Source: Vulcanimicrobiota bacterium (lineage in GTDB: Bacteria; Vulcanimicrobiota; Vulcanimicrobiia; Eremiobacterales; Eremiobacteraceae). Taken from it: 64,000 nucleotides of DNA. The stretch lies in assembly GCA_963805945.1 (NCBI GenBank), contig CAWDVP010000001.1:256001-320000 (forward strand), in the 5' to 3' direction. Positions 19,753 through 38,115 of this stretch are shown here, one piece after another. Under the pieces are notes generated by a model. The model was not told the origin of the DNA and made no database searches. It worked only from the letters and a program-made list of their open reading frames with translations. The translations under genes were made by a program, and so were the position numbers. How positions within the stretch are numbered: position 1 is the first letter of the stretch; each line of letters starts with the position of its first letter.

Positions 19753-20238
19753 TTATTGGGCGGGCTTGAAGACCAGCGCCACCCCGTTCATGCAGTAGCG
19801 CAGTCCGGTCGGCTTCGGCCCGTCGTCGAACACGTGGCCGAGATGTCCGCCGCAGCGACGGCAATGCACCTCGGTGCGCACCTCTAAGAACGACGTGTCG
19901 CGCGTCGTGCCGATAGCGTTCGGCAACGGCGCCCAGAAACTCGGCCAGCCGGTCCCGCTGTCGTACTTGGTCTTCGACGAGAACAGCTGGAGTTCGCAGC
20001 CGGCGCACGAGTATATCCCCGGCCGCGTCTCGAGATCGAGCGGACTGGTGAACGCCGTCTCGGTCCCCTGCTCGCGCAGCACGTAGAACTGCTCCGGCGT
20101 GAGCCGCTTCTTCCACTCTTCGGTGCTGTAGCTCACTTCGTATGTCTGCGCCGAGCGTGCGGCGCGGCGCGAATTAGCCACGCCTACGGCGGCGGCGATC
20201 GCGGCGAGTGTCCCTGTGATCCAAGTGCGTCGAGTCAT
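19753..20238 (-). CDS. msrB: Peptide-methionine (R)-S-oxide reductase with N-terminal export signal
   Basis: GTETAF, CAGC, KYDSGTGWPSF, RTEVHCRRCGGHLGHVFDDGP, RYCMNG; TRRTWI Tat-like leader; GAGGGA SD. Confidence 0.95.
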   Translation of the reverse strand: MTRRTWITGTLAAIAAAVGVANSRRAARSAQTYEVSYSTEEWKKRLTPEQFYVLREQGTETAFTSPLDLETRPGIYSCAGCELQLFSSKTKYDSGTGWPSFWAPLPNAIGTTRDTSFLEVRTEVHCRRCGGHLGHVFDDGPKPTGLRYCMNGVALVFKPAQ

Positions 20239-20356
20239 GATGTCCCTCGTCAAGCGTACTTTCTCTGTGTGGATATACGTTGTCCCGGTGGTTTTGGATG
20301 CGGGTACCCCGCCGGCGCGGGTGAATGCTCCCTATTTCGCCAAGCGTGCAAGCGAT

Positions 20357-25433: not shown

Positions 25434-25502
25434 CAGCTGGCTCTCAGCCTGACGACCGGAGGGAAGACACGCTGGTCAGTTATCTAACGTTGGCGCCCCG
25501 AC

Positions 25503-25970
25503 CTAGCGCTTGCGTTTGGACTTCGCGGCAGCCGCTTTCCCTTTGGCCTTCGGCTCCTTCTTCAGCGCTGCCGGATAGCCCGACTGGACGTGGCCACCGC
25601 CTGGCGGCCAGGGGAAGGGCAAGCGGGGGCGAGGTACTCCGGGATCGCCAGGCGCGTCCGGCCAGACATGTTGGACGTGGCCGCCGATGTAAGGATTCTC
25701 GGGGTTCGTCCGCAGACCGTGCTGGACATGGCCGCCCTGCATGGCTTTACCCTGATGCTCGGCGTCTATCTCTTGGTTGACGTCGTGCGCCCTATCCTTC
25801 GGAGGGCTCTCTTTGAAGAGGCCGACTTGCTTCATCGTCAGACCGTACGCGTCGGCCCAACCGGCGGTGTCGGCGTCGCCGTAAAAATCGTTGCGCGCGT
25901 CCTCATCAAAGGTGAGGAGCAACGCAAGCGCGGTGAATCGGTAGTAGGTGCCTGACGTTCTGCGCGCCAT
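25503..25970 (-). CDS. Putative split-borosin RiPP precursor: LigA-like borosin-binding domain, 3x GGHVQ repeats, Lys-rich tail
   Basis: AAGGAG SD; N-terminus LTFDEDARNDF...AYGLTMKQV resembles the SonA BBD pattern; lies directly downstream of a borosin methyltransferase. Confidence 0.75.
   Translation of the reverse strand: MARRTSGTYYRFTALALLLTFDEDARNDFYGDADTAGWADAYGLTMKQVGLFKESPPKDRAHDVNQEIDAEHQGKAMQGGHVQHGLRTNPENPYIGGHVQHVWPDAPGDPGVPRPRLPFPWPPGGGHVQSGYPAALKKEPKAKGKAAAAKSKRKR
25584..25736 (-). repeat. Three in-frame GGHVQ-encoding repeats in the precursor
   Basis: + strand ctggacatggccgcc (25722-25736), ttggacgtggccgcc (25671-25685), ctggacgtggccacc (25584-25598). Confidence 0.9.
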
Positions 25971-26034
25971 GATGCTACGCTCCTTTAGAAAGCACGAAGG
26001 CATTCTGACCGGTGCGTCAGGCGGCGGCCTTCTT

Positions 26035-26953: not shown

Positions 26954-27463
26954 CTAGTTCGCGGCGGCTGCCGGTGCGCGGCGCGCGACGAGCGAGAGCA
27001 ACGCGCCTGCGACAGCGGCCACGATTATGATCCATGCTGCGTTCGGATCGCTCAAGAGCCCGAGCGGCGCTTGCGCATCGAGCGCATAGGCGCCGACGCC
27101 GCCAAAGGCGATCGCGAGCGCGGCGGCGATATTCGCGAGATTGTACTCGTAGCCGCCGTTGCTCGCCCAAAATCCCTTGCCGAAATGCACGGTGGCGATA
27201 GCGACGATCATCACCGCGATGATGAGCGCCGGGCCGACCGGATTGAGCCAGCCGAGCGCCGTGAGCAATCCGCCTGCGAGCTCACCGAAGCCGGCGACGA
27301 ACGCGAAGAGCACTCCCGGCTTCATGCCGAGGCCTTCGAAGAAGCCGCCGGTGCCTTTGAGGCCATAGCCGCCGAACCAGCCGAACAATTTCTGCGCGCC
27401 GTGCGCGAAGAAGATGGTGCCGAGCAGCAGGCGCGCGATGAGGAGTCCAATGCTTGTGATCAT
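26954..27463 (-). CDS. DoxX family membrane protein
   Basis: ARLLLGTIFFAHGAQKLFGWFGG, VHFGKGFW..NGGYEY; TATAAT 6 nt before ATG. Confidence 0.92.
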   Translation of the reverse strand: MITSIGLLIARLLLGTIFFAHGAQKLFGWFGGYGLKGTGGFFEGLGMKPGVLFAFVAGFGELAGGLLTALGWLNPVGPALIIAVMIVAIATVHFGKGFWASNGGYEYNLANIAAALAIAFGGVGAYALDAQAPLGLLSDPNAAWIIIVAAVAGALLSLVARRAPAAAAN

Positions 27464-27536: not shown

Positions 27537-28448
27537 TCACTGAGCGGCGCGACACTGTTGATTGCCGCTATCGGTGAACGCGTACCCGGCGATCGGCGCG
27601 AAGCGCCACGCAAACGAGTGCGGGTGCAATGTCAAGAACAACACGCCGAACGTGCCGGCGGCCCGCGACTCGCTGTTCTGTCCTATCTTTAGAAAGATCG
27701 AGTGACTGCGCCCTCCCGTGCCGACCACGAACTCGGTGATGCCGCGCGCCGTGTCCGCGGCGCCCGCAGGCGTCTGCGGCGCAAAGCGCTCGTAGTCGTG
27801 GTCGTGACCGGCCAGCACGACATCCGCATCCGCCGCGTAGAGATCGTTCCAGAACGGCGCATAGCGCGGATCGCTGTTGTGCGTGCCTGAGGAGAAGCGC
27901 GGCTGATGCCAATACGCCAGCGTGCACGCCGCGTGATGCTGCGCCAAGTCCGCGCGCAGCCAGCGTTCCTGCGGCGAGCCCAGCCCGCAACCGCCGATGA
28001 AGTCGCAATTGCCGTTGAGCGCGATGATGTGCCAGCGTCCGAGGTCGAAGCTGTAGTAGCCTTTCGCCGGCGCGCCGGCGCTGGCCCCGAAGTACGCGAA
28101 GTAGCCTTCCGCGCGCGTTGATGAATAGTATTCGTGATTGCCCGGCGTCGGGTGCGTGATGGCTTTGACCTGGCCCCACGAGGCCTGATACGAGTGCTCG
28201 AACGCTTCGAGCGCACCATCTTCATATTGCTCGTCGCCGAGCGTGAGGACTGCGTCAGGATGCGCAGCGGCGATCAGTTTGTACGTTTGTGCTGCTTGAC
28301 AGCCGCCGAACATCGACTCGATGTTCGAACCGAGATGCGGCCTGCTGTCGCACGCGATGTCGCCGGCCGCAGCGATGAGCGGATCGTGCGGCGGGGTGTG
28401 GATAGGAGCCGCTGTTACGATGCTGAGAGCTGCGAGGAGCGCGAACAC
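27537..28448 (-). CDS. Secreted metallophosphoesterase (calcineurin-like / purple acid phosphatase-like)
   Basis: AAGDIAC, LGDEQY, PGNHEY, YWHQP, LAGHDHDYER, VGTGG; GTG start with GAGGAG SD. Confidence 0.9.
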   Translation of the reverse strand: MFALLAALSIVTAAPIHTPPHDPLIAAAGDIACDSRPHLGSNIESMFGGCQAAQTYKLIAAAHPDAVLTLGDEQYEDGALEAFEHSYQASWGQVKAITHPTPGNHEYYSSTRAEGYFAYFGASAGAPAKGYYSFDLGRWHIIALNGNCDFIGGCGLGSPQERWLRADLAQHHAACTLAYWHQPRFSSGTHNSDPRYAPFWNDLYAADADVVLAGHDHDYERFAPQTPAGAADTARGITEFVVGTGGRSHSIFLKIGQNSESRAAGTFGVLFLTLHPHSFAWRFAPIAGYAFTDSGNQQCRAAQ

Positions 28449-28485
28449 GCGCTCCTCTTCTTGAGCCGAGCCGCCCCGCCTTCGA

Positions 28486-28508
28486 CCCGAGCTTCGCTCG
28501 GGCGCCAC
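28486..28508 (-). repeat. REP family C (CCCGAGCGAAGCTCGGG hairpin)
   Basis: CCCGAGCTTCGCTCGGGCGCCAC on +. Confidence 0.7.
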
Positions 28509-28520
28509 AGAGCTCGGACC

Positions 28521-29792
28521 CTACAGCAAGGGTCGCACGTAGCGGCGCCACACGAAGACGGCGATCAGCACCAGCGGCAGCCAGAACGGCGCGAACGCGA
28601 TGATGGTGAGCAGCCGCGAGACGAGCTTCACGGAGACCTTCTTGACGCTGATCAGCGCGGCTTTCCAGGCATCGGCGATCTGCACGCCGGCGCTCGGTTC
28701 GACGGTCGCGGCCGGCTTTTCGTCTTGGATGCCGATGGAGATGGTCGAATACGCCACGCGATGCTGCATCGACTGGAGCTGCGCGTCGAGCTGCTCGATC
28801 TGCTCGCGGACCTGTGCGATCTGCTGCGTCACCTCGAGCACATCGGGGATCTTGCCCGCGCGGTCCATGATGCGCAGCATGTCGCCTTCGGTGCGACGCA
28901 GGTTGCGCAAGCGCGCCTGCGCGTCGACGATCTGATCGGAGACGTTCTCGGCGCTGATGGAACGGGCTTGCACCGTGCCGAGCGCGGCGAGCGCGCTCAT
29001 CGTCTGGTCGAAACGATCGGACGGTACGCTGATCTGCACTTGCGCCGAGTGCCGGATGCCGGGCTGATAGGGCGTCTGGTCGTCGAGCGACACGATGTCG
29101 CCGAACTGTAGCTGCGCGACGCCCGCCAGCTGGCGCAGCGCCGCTTCGACGTCGGGCACGATAAGGTAGATGTTGCCGGTGCGGATGAGCTGCGGCCGCG
29201 TGATGCCGCCGGGCGGAATGCTCTTGTACAAGCTCTGCACGGCGCCCATCTCAGCCGGGGGAGCCGCCGGAGCAGCCGCCGGCGCACCGCCCATGGCCCC
29301 TTGCGGCAGATTGCTCGCCGAGCGCGTGGTGACCGCGTCGAGCGTCTTCGCCCGCTCGCCGGCCACGGGCTGATTGACAGGTTGACTCATGCTGTGAAGG
29401 AGCGGCTGGGGCTCGACCGCCACCACGCTCTCCGGCGGCCCCGACCAAGGACGAGCGACGATGATCAGCAGCGCGATCGCCGCCGCCGCGAGCGAAAAGA
29501 CCTTGCCGAGCGCGGGCAGCCTCCGCCACCACGCCGTCAGCGAGACCGTGGCGGGCGTCTGGGGCTCGGCGCTGGCGCGCGCAAGCGTGCGGCCGAGCAG
29601 ATAGTCGGAAGGACCGGGCGCGTCTTTTTCGATCTCGTGCAGCGCCGCATGCAGTTGCCGTAGCTGCTCGAGCTCGGCCGCGCACAGCGGGCACGTCGCC
29701 AGCTCGGACTCGACGGCGGCGCGGTCCTGCGGCGGCAGCGTGCCGTTGACGTACCAGGGCAGCAGTTCGACGATCCGTTCGTGTTGCATCAC
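28521..29792 (-). CDS. Anti-sigma factor: zf-HC2-like N-terminus, TM, DUF4349 domain
   Basis: ELLPWYVNGTL...CPLC; DUF4349-like AENVSDQIVDAQARLRNL...VREQIE; coupled to ECF sigma. Confidence 0.8.
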   Translation of the reverse strand: MMQHERIVELLPWYVNGTLPPQDRAAVESELATCPLCAAELEQLRQLHAALHEIEKDAPGPSDYLLGRTLARASAEPQTPATVSLTAWWRRLPALGKVFSLAAAAIALLIIVARPWSGPPESVVAVEPQPLLHSMSQPVNQPVAGERAKTLDAVTTRSASNLPQGAMGGAPAAAPAAPPAEMGAVQSLYKSIPPGGITRPQLIRTGNIYLIVPDVEAALRQLAGVAQLQFGDIVSLDDQTPYQPGIRHSAQVQISVPSDRFDQTMSALAALGTVQARSISAENVSDQIVDAQARLRNLRRTEGDMLRIMDRAGKIPDVLEVTQQIAQVREQIEQLDAQLQSMQHRVAYSTISIGIQDEKPAATVEPSAGVQIADAWKAALISVKKVSVKLVSRLLTIIAFAPFWLPLVLIAVFVWRRYVRPLL

Positions 29793-30361
29793 ATCTCTCT
29801 CCGAACGCCCCGGTCATCAAGTATACGGCGCAGTTGCTGTTTCGCGTAGAAGACCCGCGTCTTGACCGTGTTGAGCGGACAGCCGACGATGCCGGCGATC
29901 TCCGCCTGTGAATATCCGTTGATGAACGTCAGCTCGAGCACGGAGCGGTGCTCGGGCGACAGCGCGTCGAGCGCGTCGCGCACGCCGCGCATGAGGCTGC
30001 CCGCGAGCGCGACCTCCTCTGGCCCTCGCTGCGGATCGGGCGCGTCCGCGAGCGTGGCCAGCTCGATCGCCTGCGGCGCGTGACGCCGCAGCGAGTCCAT
30101 CGCCTTGTGATGCGCGATGCCGAAGATCCAGGTCGACACCTTCGATTGGCCGCGGAAGCGAGCCGCGCTCTTCCACACCTCGAGCATGACGTCGCCTTGC
30201 AGCTCTTCCGCGGTCTGCGGTGTTCGCACGAGCCCGAGCAGATAGCGGTACAGCCGATGTTCGTATGCGCGGAAGAGGCGTTCGAACGCAGCGCGATCGC
30301 CCCGCGCGATGAGCTGCAGGTCGGGAAGATCGCCGTCTGGTGTGCTGCTCTGCGGCGTCAT
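29789..30361 (-). CDS. ECF (sigma-70 group 4) RNA polymerase sigma factor
   Basis: GDRAAFERLF, AEEL..DVMLEVW, STWIFGIAHHKAMD, YSQAEIA...LNTVKTRV. Confidence 0.92.
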   Translation of the reverse strand: MTPQSSTPDGDLPDLQLIARGDRAAFERLFRAYEHRLYRYLLGLVRTPQTAEELQGDVMLEVWKSAARFRGQSKVSTWIFGIAHHKAMDSLRRHAPQAIELATLADAPDPQRGPEEVALAGSLMRGVRDALDALSPEHRSVLELTFINGYSQAEIAGIVGCPLNTVKTRVFYAKQQLRRILDDRGVRREM

Positions 30362-34867: not shown

Positions 34868-35317
34868 CTATTCGCGGACGTACTTGATGAACGACGTCCG
34901 CTTTGCGAGCGTGTCATAGAGCGCACGCGCGTCGGCGTTATATTCCTGCGTCAACCAATACACGCTGCTCGCGCCCGCCGCGTCGGCCGCTTTGTAGACC
35001 GCCTCGATCAGCGCGCGGCCGGCGCCAAGCCCGCGCGCGTCCTCAGCGACGAAGAGGTCCTCGAGGTAGCAGTACTCGCCGATCGACCACGACGCGCGGT
35101 GGAAGAGATAGTGGACGAACCCGACGATGCGGCCCTCGCTCACGGCGAGCAATCCGTGGGGCTGTTCATGCACGTCCAGCAGGCGACGCCACGTCGCCTC
35201 GGTCACTTCCGCATCGAGCCTCGCGCGATAGAACCTCAGATAGCCGTGCCAGAGCTCTTCCCAGCGCGCTCGATCGGCGGGCAGCGGGGCGCGCAACGTG
35301 ATGCCCGTCGCGCTCAT
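34868..35317 (-). CDS. GNAT family N-acetyltransferase
   Basis: [36 protein letters not shown]. Confidence 0.92.
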
Positions 35318-38115
35318 ACGGTGTCGTCATCCTCCGATTCTTCGTCATCTGGTTTGTTCAATGAGTCGGGCGGCAGCAGCCCTCGGCGGCGCGCCTCGGC
35401 CACCGCCCTCGTCCGCGATGCCGCACCGAGCTTCGCGAGCACGCGCTCGACGTGCGTCTCCACCGTCCTTGTGCTCACGTCGAGCCGCTGCGCCACCTCC
35501 TTGTTCGAGAGTCCGAGCGCGACGAGCGAAAGCACCTCTAGCTCACGCTTCGTGAGTGCCTCCCCGCGCGGGACACGGCGCGTGCGCTTTGCCTTCGGGC
35601 CGTGCAGCCAGCCGAGCTGCGTCGACCGCAACGCGATCTGCACGTCGGCGCGCCGCTGCCCGATCGGGCGCAACAACTCCGCGATCGCGGCCGCCTCGAA
35701 TCGGGCGCCGCCATGCTCTAGCTTCTCGTAGCCTGCCGCCGCTGCTCCGGCAGCATCGGCAAGAGCGCTGCCCGCACCCGTGTTGAGCCCTCGGATCGCG
35801 CTGCTCAAATCGTGCAGTTCGGCGACATCCCGGCGGGCGGCGATGAAGCGGTGGAATCGTTTCGCGGCCGGCAACTCATGGAGCGCCGCGACCGGCTCGT
35901 CCGGACCGACCGCGAGCGCCAGCTCGAGCATCGCGCCAGCCGACGCGAGCAATGCCGCGTCGACCGCGTCTATGGGCTCGACGCCCGTGACGTCGGCGAT
36001 CGCCTCCGCGCGCGCCGTGGACGCGTCGGAGCTTTCTAGGAGCGTCGCATACAGCGCGGCGTCCGCCTTCATCGCCGCGCGTTCGGGTGGCGGCGGCGAG
36101 GTCGACGCAAGCGCGGCGCGCACGATCTGCAGCGCTTGCGCGGCCGCTCCACCCACGAATGCGCAGCGCGCGAGCATCCGCTGTGAGTGCGCAGCCATGC
36201 GCCTGCGATCCGGGGCATACCATGCGACGGCGGCATGCTCGCGCAGGGTCTCGGCGGCATGCGCGCATTTCTCACGCTCTCCCGCCCCCGCGTGGATCTC
36301 CACAAGCACGTAGTAGACGTTGGCCATTTCGGTCTGCAAGTTCAGGTCGCGCCCGAGCACGGTTCCCTGACGCGCGTAGTCGGCCGCAGCGTTGATGTCA
36401 CCCCAGAGCAGCGACAGGCGGGCGTACCAGAACAGCGCGCAGCACAGCAGGACCACATGCTCTGATGGCTCGAGATCGCGCAGCAGCTCGCTCATCCTCA
36501 TATCTGCCCGCGCGAAGTCGCCGAGGCAGGTCGCCGCATACGCATACAGGAGCGCGGCACGGAAGCGCAGCACGGGCGACGCCGCTCCCAGTTCGGCGGC
36601 CGTCGCGGCTTTCTCAACTGCGGTCACGTAGTCGCCTTCGATCGTCTTGGTCCATCCCAGCAGGATCAGTGCGGTGGCCCGCTGCTGTGTGCCCAGCGCG
36701 TCCGCTTCTCTGACGAACCCGCCGATCTCGCCGACGACCTCAGGGTCGACGCTGTCCAAAGCGCCCCAGAGCAGCTGCACGCGCAACGCGAAGATGGACT
36801 CCTCGTCGCGCAGCTGTTTCGCGATCTCCAGAGCGGTGAGGAACAGCTCGCGTGCGCCAGGCATGCCGCGCTGGCGCATCAGCATGCCCTGGACTCGGCC
36901 GACGAGGACGGGGACATCAGCGCCGCGTTTGCCGAGCTCCCTGACCGCGCGCCCGGCCTGTTCTCCATGGCCGTCGGCGAACAGCGTGTCGGCGTGGATG
37001 GTGAGGAATAGTGCGAGCCGTTTCTCGTCTCGCGACCTCTCGAAATGGAACAACGCCGGCGCATGCAGGCCCGCCGCTTCGAGCATGTCGCCGGCCCAGA
37101 CATGGAGACGCGCGACGCCGTCGTCGCCGTCTCGCTCCCGGATCCGATCGAGCAGCGCTTCGCGCATGAGCGAATGCTGCCGATACGTCTCGCCCGACCG
37201 CAACACCGCAAGCATCTCGCCGCGCCGTTCCAGCTCCCGCAGCATGCGGCGCGCCGCCGGAAACCCGCCGTGCTGCTCAAGGACCGAGGCCTCGAGCACG
37301 TCGAGCGTCGCGGTGCGCTCCAAGAACCCGGTGAGCTCGTCGGGCAGTGTCGCGACGTGCGCGGTGATGAGCTGGGTGACCAGCGGCGCGTCGGGTGTCG
37401 CATGCGCAGTGGTCGCGTCCGCTTGAGCGCCGACCAGCAGCGAGATGCCGGCGGGCCAGCCTTCACAGCGAGCGCATAGCTCGGCCGCCATACGCTCGTC
37501 CAGATCCGCACCATGCTTGCGCGCCAAGAGCGCCGTCTCCGAATCGCTGAACTTCAGATCGTCGACGCCGAACATCACCGCACGGCCTTGCGATGTCCAC
37601 TCCGCCAGCGGGAGCGAGGGAGAGCTGCGGCCGATGAGCAGCAGCGTCACGGTCTCGGGGAGCTGGCGCATCGCGCCCGTGATGAAATCGGAAAGCGCCA
37701 GATCGCCTTCGAGCACCTGGTAGTCCTCGATCACGAGGACGAGGCGTTCCGGGATGTGACCGAGCTCTTGCGCGAAGGCCGCACCGATGCGCGTGACCCA
37801 ACGCCGGAGCGCGTCGGCATCATCTGAAGGTGGGCGGCCGTGCGCTGCAAGCGCAAGCGTGAAGCGTCCGAAATCCTCGCGGACGGTGCTCACCTCCTCG
37901 ACGAGCGGCTCGATGAAGCCGCCGGCATGCCAGGGCTGCGCGGTGTACCACACCGCGGGCAGACCGACGGCGTCGACGGTCAGCGCGCCCGCCGACGTCT
38001 TGCCGTAACCCGCCGGCGCCTGGATGACGATGAGGCGATGCGAGCGGATAGCCATAGACACGGCCTCCACAAAGGAAGCCCTTGGAATGAGGTCTCGGAC
38101 GGAAGGAACCGGCAT
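35314..38115 (-). CDS. MalT-like STAND ATPase / LuxR-HTH regulator
   Basis: [32 protein letters not shown]-terminal LTKRELEVL...SNKEVA..RTVETHV. Confidence 0.9.

Follow-up and report, generated by a model that had tools for sequence, protein, structure and literature searches.

Within a stretch of 64,000 nucleotides from a Vulcanimicrobiota bacterium (Eremiobacteraceae; GenBank assembly GCA_963805945.1, contig CAWDVP010000001.1, positions 256,001 to 320,000), hereafter called the window and meaning the whole of the DNA analysed, we found two adjoining minus-strand genes that very probably encode a borosin enzyme (an alpha-N-methyltransferase) and its cognate precursor, the latter carrying a borosin-binding domain (BBD). 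By analogy with characterised systems we consider it somewhat probable that they form a split borosin cassette of Type IV architecture, producing a RiPP (a peptide made on the ribosome and modified after translation) from a multi-core substrate in which repeated GGHVQ units would be the methylated cores. Type IV corresponds to the class 3 split borosins, in which, as described, the precursor bears the BBD and the enzyme is a plain one (PMC11395268). Residue numbers of the precursor follow its 155-residue form, and the coordinates of all features are collected in Table 1.

The enzyme was assigned to the TP_methylase family (PF00590) with an E value of 2.9e-18 and a score of 67 bits (cut-off, 27.8), and its scores lay far under the cut-offs of the NCBIfam cobalamin-pathway models. 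All 25 PDB sequences recovered by phmmer at E<=1e-3 were borosin alpha-N-methyltransferases (dbOphM, 1e-45; OphMA, ~2e-45; SonM, 2.4e-43; MroMA, 1.8e-39), and the YGHPG and DCLFADLGVDP motifs (Y97-G98-H99-P100 and D131-C132-L133-F-A135-D136) were invariant or nearly so in an alignment of 16 enzymes. The YGHP and DCLFAD motifs are those given for the borosin detection hidden Markov models (HMMs) of Imani et al. (bioRxiv 10.1101/2021.12.24.474128). Residues 4-265 align with the OphMA catalytic domain (4-270), and in OphMA the BBD occupies 321-375; with a total length of 283 residues, the window enzyme thus has no room for a fused BBD. In a maximum-likelihood tree of 43 enzymes (from which two partial rows were dropped and L001-L003 left out, and in which L009, from genome G344, flagged unpublished, was included) it formed a long branch (1.05 changes per column) inside a weakly supported group (91/87) with all the enzymes of its own class.

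The precursor is encoded by a separate gene that adjoins the enzyme gene on the same strand, at a distance of 64 nt. Its open reading frame (ORF) spans 25503-26003, and we take the ATG at 25970 as the likely start, because an AAGGAG sequence lies 9 nt upstream (25980-25985) and gene callers began both known homologues at the same MAR; the longer frame reaching 26003 is probably not used. AlphaFold2 modelled five helices (residues 11-21, 23-31, 35-42, 46-53 and 57-76; predicted local distance difference test, pLDDT, 74-91), followed after residue 78 by a disordered region (pLDDT <50).

Taken alone, the precursor has no Pfam or NCBIfam match and only chance-level sequence matches in the PDB (E>=0.28), and a search of the ESM Atlas with it gave no usable match. 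Small ORFs adjoining methyltransferase homologues in related genomes were hence collected for precursor profiles. By hhalign, the three-member family of the window precursor matched 12 of these neighbouring precursors at 97.35% (E 1.6e-11, residues ~9-83) and a set of 15 at 96.4% (E 1.1e-9). The latter set holds no rows from genomes flagged unpublished, and the BBD conclusions were repeated on it; among such genomes, L020 (G233) is a row of alignments A2, A3, A4 and A6, and L009 a row of A4. The profile of neighbouring precursors in turn matched the chains of SonA in SonM-SonA crystal structures, with E values of 5.3e-9 without the window-family rows and 2e-6 with them. The nearest single relative of the domain was the precursor of L020 (BLASTP, 29% over 87 residues, E 5e-6). 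When the model was compared with 48,161 chains by VIA-align, the first three ranks went to 3wku_A (LigA-like, Z 4.6), 9cgw_B (SonA, Z 4.2; root mean square deviation 2.4 A over 52 of 52 residues) and 1b4u_A (LigA, Z 3.8), and the BBD region of a fungal borosin stood at rank 17 (Z 3.3). Profile and model evidence together indicate that the N-terminal domain of the precursor is a borosin-binding domain. As a side observation, the segment GL(T/S)xEQxxALL in helices 3-4 of the BBD is so similar to LTPEQVVAIA, with which TAL-effector repeats begin, that TALE proteins received large summed scores; a match of the A7 profile to TAL-effector repeat proteins was set aside as a probable repeat artefact, as it summed many weak 17-residue matches and contained no stretch significant alone.

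The disordered region that follows carries the sequence GGHVQ three times. The first copy begins 3 residues past the last BBD helix, the second lies 17 residues past the first and the third 29 past the second, so that three units are spread over 51 residues, with a polybasic tail of 19 residues at the end, an arrangement unlike the single short core of SonA. When the residues of the protein were shuffled 20,000 times, any 5-mer was present three or more times in one shuffle. At the DNA level, the codons of copies 1, 2 and 3 differ at synonymous positions (His CAT/CAC/CAC, Gln CAG/CAA/CAG, Gly GGC/GGC/GGT), the 36-nt segments enclosing each copy have 18-22 of 36 bases in common and Tandem Repeats Finder reported no DNA repeat in the precursor; from the last two results we conclude that the copies are not the outcome of a recent DNA duplication. 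Gly-Gly-His is well known as a sequence that binds Cu(II)/Ni(II), and by this resemblance metal binding by the units is chemically plausible.

Relatives of the precursor are scarce: two were found among 5.8 billion clustered proteins, and the same two in an HMMER reading of 1.84 billion representatives. The closer, P0002, stems from one metagenome locus (L002), is 83% identical and has three units; the other, P0003 (171 residues), has 42-51% identity and four units (QGGHIQHG, RGGHVQHV and GGGHVQSG twice). Over the three sequences 14 of the 15 motif columns are invariant, the exception being V/I in copy 1, and both homologues keep the KRKR end and the Lys spacing of the tail. In P0003 most of the spacer is replaced and every GGHVQ is kept, and no other feature of the disordered region is as well conserved as this unit. 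Against L002, the ratio of nonsynonymous to synonymous substitutions (dN/dS) was 0.23 overall at a dS of 0.40, and 0.20 for the BBD, 0.28 for residues 77-134 and 0.20 for the tail (20 codons); these values indicate that the whole precursor, core and tail included, is under purifying selection. L002 also retains the order of enzyme, precursor and regulator start seen in the window.

Wider searches added no members. A pattern scan of 185,579 species genomes gave 352 matches and no relative, a search with the core alone (residues 77-155) returned the window's own protein and P0002, and neither 400 genomes of the phylum nor 31 of the family held a relative (one weak match among the 400, in G276 at E 0.0035, proved unrelated when translated and was rejected as spurious). 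When 48 loci were scanned in all six frames for GGH[VI]Q or GH[VI]Q[HS], the one hit beyond the window and L002 was an off-frame GHVQS in L047. An earlier note on this DNA had dealt with 25503-25760 (residue 71 to the stop), proposing a borosin methyltransferase with a substrate of three GGHVQ copies. Its sequences, motif positions, spacer and tail are all correct on the minus-strand ORF, and so are the synonymous codon differences and the basic end that it saw on the methyltransferase (RSTKGRRKAKVPPRG). The pairing of enzyme and substrate is borne out by the PDB and BBD profile matches, and the conservation and copy-number variation of GGHVQ that it suggested looking for in homologues are both found, the motif being kept in the two relatives in three to four copies.

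Drawing on these data, we propose that the S-adenosylmethionine-dependent methyltransferase would bind the five-helix BBD (residues 10-76), that the disordered C-terminal region would thread through the active site and that backbone amides would be methylated within each GGHVQ, the likeliest site being Val or its immediate neighbour, because Val is the only hydrophobic residue of the unit and fits the hydrophobic 'i' pocket described for SonM. Local recognition of the units would allow one docking domain to serve three of them (four in P0003), and the adjacent LuxR-type regulator probably controls expression. We place methylation in GGHVQ because of the conservation of the motif within the disordered region, and because copy 1 sits directly past the BBD, where the core of SonA lies. 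The published behaviour of SonM argues in the same direction, since the enzyme picks its sites locally and a duplicated core is also methylated: it is reported to have hydrophobic pockets at positions i and i-2, to tolerate charge poorly and to choose sites by the immediately upstream sequence rather than by distance from the BBD (PMC11751858), and duplication of the SonA core gave tris- and tetrakis-methylated products, at the predicted positions and in both copies (PMC11751858, section 2.7).

Several points weigh against this proposal. The GGHVQ unit is polar and Gly-rich, with one hydrophobic residue, and is more polar than the known Type IV cores, while SonM is said to prefer hydrophobic residues at both i and i-2 (PMC11751858). 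The long branch of the window enzyme means that its specificity may differ from that of SonM. With three members, the family offers thin conservation statistics, and the sole C-terminal segment that aligns with the cores of same-genus precursors is PFPWPPGGG, not GGHVQ. As to the docking domain, the window precursor belongs to no Pfam family (LigA is weakly matched in 5 of 15 relatives), Foldseek of its model against the PDB gave nothing at E<=0.001, and the VIA-align result, consistent with a BBD, is not decisive, as Z values of 3.8-4.6 are common for helical bundles.

The distance of the units from the BBD opens another reading. The residues methylated in SonA (L63 and I65, behind a five-helix BBD at residues 1-53) are 10-12 past that domain (PMC8429565), and copy 1 of the window precursor lies at the same distance; moreover, copies 1 and 2 both read GGHVQH, and copy 3 reads GGHVQSG in a different context. 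Methylation might thus be confined to the BBD-adjacent region (copy 1, perhaps copy 2), with the Pro-rich stretch, copy 3 and the tail acting as a follower or functional region and not as substrate. We regard this as unlikely, if well worth bearing in mind: the local regiospecificity of SonM and the methylation of its duplicated distal core speak against control by distance (PMC11751858), and the duplication of the copy-3 type in P0003 suggests that this unit is of importance by itself. Long methylated stretches are also reported for other borosins (e.g., 32 consecutive residues in SliA). A different site altogether, the Pro-rich LPFPWPPGG element, would be favoured by the alignment of PFPWPPGGG, alone among the C-terminal parts, with five same-genus precursor C-termini; GGHVQ would then serve otherwise, either in metal coordination (through His and the preceding Gly amides, in keeping with the general coordination chemistry of Gly-Gly-His) or in protease recognition. 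The pockets of SonM, which favour hydrophobic side chains (PMC11751858), would suit such a site. We nevertheless find it rather improbable, as Pro has no amide hydrogen and leaves few methylatable positions in LPFPWPPGG, the element occurs once (the repeated, conserved unit is GGHVQ), and P0003 dispenses with most of the spacer and with none of the units.

That the ORF is not a functional gene, or its repeats a chance or low-complexity artefact, could be argued from the missing Pfam and NCBIfam matches and from the fact that very large databases yielded no more than two relatives. This notion, to which we give almost no credence, is already contradicted by the dN/dS value, by the homologue that at 42-51% identity retains domain, motifs and tail, by the Shine-Dalgarno site and the position beside the enzyme (syntenic in L002) and by the shuffle test. 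More speculative, and in our judgement quite improbable, is the idea that the product is an intact, uncleaved, backbone-N-methylated disordered protein, the Gly-Gly-His sequences of which bind Cu(II)/Ni(II) and the polybasic tail of which attaches it to some polyanion, be it nucleic acid, polyphosphate or acidic membrane; methylation may in that case tune which amides coordinate the metal, or shield the chain from proteases. For SonA, questions about the peptidase are described as having been settled by experiment only (PMC10549244; bioRxiv 10.1101/2024.01.09.574750). On balance we retain the Type IV cassette with GGHVQ as the methylated core as our working reading.

Table 1. Coordinates of the predicted borosin pair, its sequence elements and the flanking genes (positions within the window)
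Feature	Positions	Strand	Basis or remark
DoxX-family membrane protein	26954-27463	minus	upstream of the methyltransferase
Borosin-type alpha-N-methyltransferase, 283 aa	26035-26886	minus	PF00590; YGHPG and EDCLFADLGVDP motifs; no fused BBD
Basic tail of the enzyme, RSTKGRRKAKVPPRG, last 15 residues	26038-26082	minus	
Precursor gene, 155 aa plus stop	25503-25970	minus	AAGGAG, homologue starts, dN/dS
Predicted borosin-binding domain (BBD, leader), residues 10-76, five helices	25743-25943	minus	AlphaFold2, hhalign, VIA-align
GGHVQ copy 1, residues 79-83 (QGGHVQHG, 78-85)	25722-25736	minus	
GGHVQ copy 2, residues 96-100 (IGGHVQHV, 95-102)	25671-25685	minus	
Pro/Gly-rich spacer PDAPGDPGVPRPRLPFPWPP, residues 104-123, PFPWPP at its end	25602-25661	minus	
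GGHVQ copy 3, residues 125-129 (GGGHVQSG, 124-131)	25584-25598	minus	
Polybasic tail KKEPKAKGKAAAAKSKRKR, residues 137-155	25506-25562	minus	
AAA_16 + TPR + GerE (ATPase/LuxR-family) regulator, 937 aa	22620-25433	minus	Pfam; directly 3' of the precursor gene

The locus consists of four consecutive minus-strand genes (DoxX, TP_methylase, the small ORF and the AAA_16/TPR/GerE regulator). On the DoxX side they are followed by genes for a metallophosphoesterase, a DUF4349/zf-HC2 anti-sigma-like protein, an extracytoplasmic function (ECF) sigma factor and succinate dehydrogenase, and on the regulator side by CFA synthase, a fatty-acid desaturase, MsrB (19753-20253) and a molybdopterin oxidoreductase. 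The first three of the DoxX side occupy 27537-30361 of the minus strand, 5' of DoxX; the metallophosphoesterase looks secreted, and the DUF4349 protein has the zf-HC2 anti-sigma motif at its N-terminus. Together with MsrB, these surroundings could be an envelope or oxidative-stress neighbourhood. Within ~10 kb of the borosin pair no protease, exporter or further tailoring genes were seen, which leaves room for an uncleaved product, as absence of evidence only. Elsewhere in the window, a second protein of the regulator's size, also with a GerE end, is encoded at 35314-38115 (minus strand).

A scan for promoter- and terminator-like sites gave one of the former (upstream of DoxX; 0.5 expected) and four of the latter (1.6 expected), with no site between the enzyme and precursor genes. 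Between the window and L002, the two spacers flanking the precursor gene (25971-26034 and 25434-25502) show no less conservation than the coding sequence, and their predicted RNA folding was no better than that of shuffles (z -0.44 and 0.15). The GC content of the cassette (0.635-0.677) is close to the window mean (0.668), and we therefore see no sign of recent transfer. Three DNA runs from soil metagenomes carry small shares of the sequence, and no RNA run is listed for it.

The site, if not the precursor, could be traced in the phylum, where methyltransferase homologues (<=49% identity) were present in 69 of 401 genomes, including all six of the same genus. In each of these six, a regulator orthologue (48-52% identity) stands directly 3' of the enzyme gene and a BBD precursor of 85-97 residues directly 5' of it; the ~935-residue AAA_16/TPR/GerE regulator was observed as a fixed partner of the methyltransferase in all six, in the window and in L002. 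Past the regulator, the CFA synthase is 69-71% identical in three same-genus loci. From the synteny and the identity of regulator, CFA synthase and enzyme we conclude that the site is orthologous, and sequence comparison also indicates that the cassette is fast-evolving, since identity to the same-genus loci falls from ~70% in the CFA synthase through 50% in the regulator and 44% in the enzyme to 25% in the precursor. Like the window, the same-genus cassettes (L050-L055, L021 and L023) combine a BBD precursor, a methyltransferase (40-46% identical) and a LuxR-type regulator. Their short precursors differ from that of the window in preceding the enzyme gene, in having one core and in lacking both GGHVQ and a basic tail, and the window lineage, with its precursor between enzyme and regulator, shows the inverted gene order. 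The C-termini P-x-P..WPPG(T/G)GG of five of them are those that align with PFPWPPGGG of the window precursor, and two have a single HVN in the equivalent region. None of the same-genus precursors was detected by the A1 profile at E<=0.001.

Precursors with many cores are not confined to this lineage. A BBD followed by many short His/Gln/Val/Ile/Pro-rich units was seen in 11 of the 33 detected precursors (L028, L029, L030, L033, L034, L035, L037, L042 and L046, and also L027 and L043), which are 215-350 residues long, are neighbours of related methyltransferases in Pseudomonadota, Myxococcota, Actinomycetota and Chloroflexota, and have tandem units of the (V/I)HPQ, PPQF(V/I) or LPPQFQQ type. 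Their enzymes form a separate clade (support 100/99). In layout these precursors resemble that of the window (L027 even has an Arg/Lys-rich tail), but their repeats are true DNA tandem arrays, of which the 42 nt x 15 array in the cultured Vineibacter terrae (L046) is an example, whereas the window precursor has no DNA repeat. No description of the (V/I)HPQ/PPQF multi-core precursors was found in searchable text, the supplements of the bioRxiv surveys being outside its scope, and borosins were linked with Bradyrhizobium, Anaeromyxobacter or Vineibacter in no searchable text.

Basic tails are not peculiar to the window precursor. At least 7 Lys/Arg in the last 20 residues were counted in 4 of the 33 BBD precursors (46 loci), namely those of L002, L009 (from the G344 genome flagged unpublished), L027 and L047; that of L016 has 6, and the precursor of L017, missed by the HMM, is also basic. 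Three phyla are represented among them, through Actinomycetota, Acidobacteriota and the class to which the window belongs. In part of these loci the enzyme, too, ends in a basic tail, though enzyme and precursor tails do not vary in step.

Split borosins, BBD-fused precursors and multi-core precursors are already in print. The earlier note's description of the substrate as an 'unusual' multi-core precursor calls for qualification, since precursors with many cores have been described (Type V) and were found many times, with a docking domain and next to related enzymes, in other phyla. What appears new is the combination of Type IV architecture with a multi-core His/Gly/Gln motif, together with a polybasic C-terminus, the reversal of gene order and the phylum of the host. 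The string 'GGHVQ' occurred in no searchable paper, a search whose scope excluded the supplementary precursor datasets of two bioRxiv surveys and the paper of Cho et al. on trans-acting borosin methyltransferases, which may list similar sequences.

Borosin methyltransferases attract interest as a means of N-methylating peptide backbones, and what governs their choice of substrate is not yet clear. The window substrate differs from characterised ones in its short polar His/Gly units, three to four per docking domain, and in an architecture that mixes Type IV with Type V; at the same time, the locus, which lies in a little-studied soil phylum, combines a site that is otherwise orthologous with rapid turnover of the precursor. 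The occurrence of polybasic tails on a minority of precursors from three phyla raises the question whether some borosin products act as modified proteins. Were the intact-protein idea true, borosin chemistry would be a protein-modification system and not a natural-product pathway alone, and the basic tails across three phyla would mark a functional subclass.

Among characterised systems, the closest in architecture is SonM/SonA of Shewanella oneidensis (Type IV; PDB 7LTC and 7LTE, among others; product shewanellamide A), which shares with the window a discrete enzyme of ~260-280 residues without docking domain and a precursor in which an N-terminal five-helix BBD precedes the core. SonA is reported as a protein of 71 residues with one hydrophobic core that yields a 16-mer (PMC8429565; PMC10549244); the window precursor, in contrast, is 155 residues long, has its three polar GGHVQ units set among Pro-rich spacers, ends in a polybasic tail and is encoded downstream of its enzyme, with neither GGDEF nor peptidase genes nearby. 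With RceM/RceA of Rhodospirillum centenum (Type V) the window shares, as putative cores, several repeated units per precursor. Type V split borosins, as described, have a short leader on the precursor and a BBD predicted to be part of the enzyme, whereas in the window it is the precursor that bears the BBD, the enzyme lacking the length for one; and where RceA has ten near-identical 11-residue repeats, with one methylation per core reported, the three copies of the window have just a 5-residue motif in common and differ in their flanks. The fungal Type I proteins OphMA and dbOphMA are the best sequence match of the window enzyme and have the same catalytic motifs, but unite enzyme, BBD and core (a hydrophobic 12-mer) in one autocatalytic protein.

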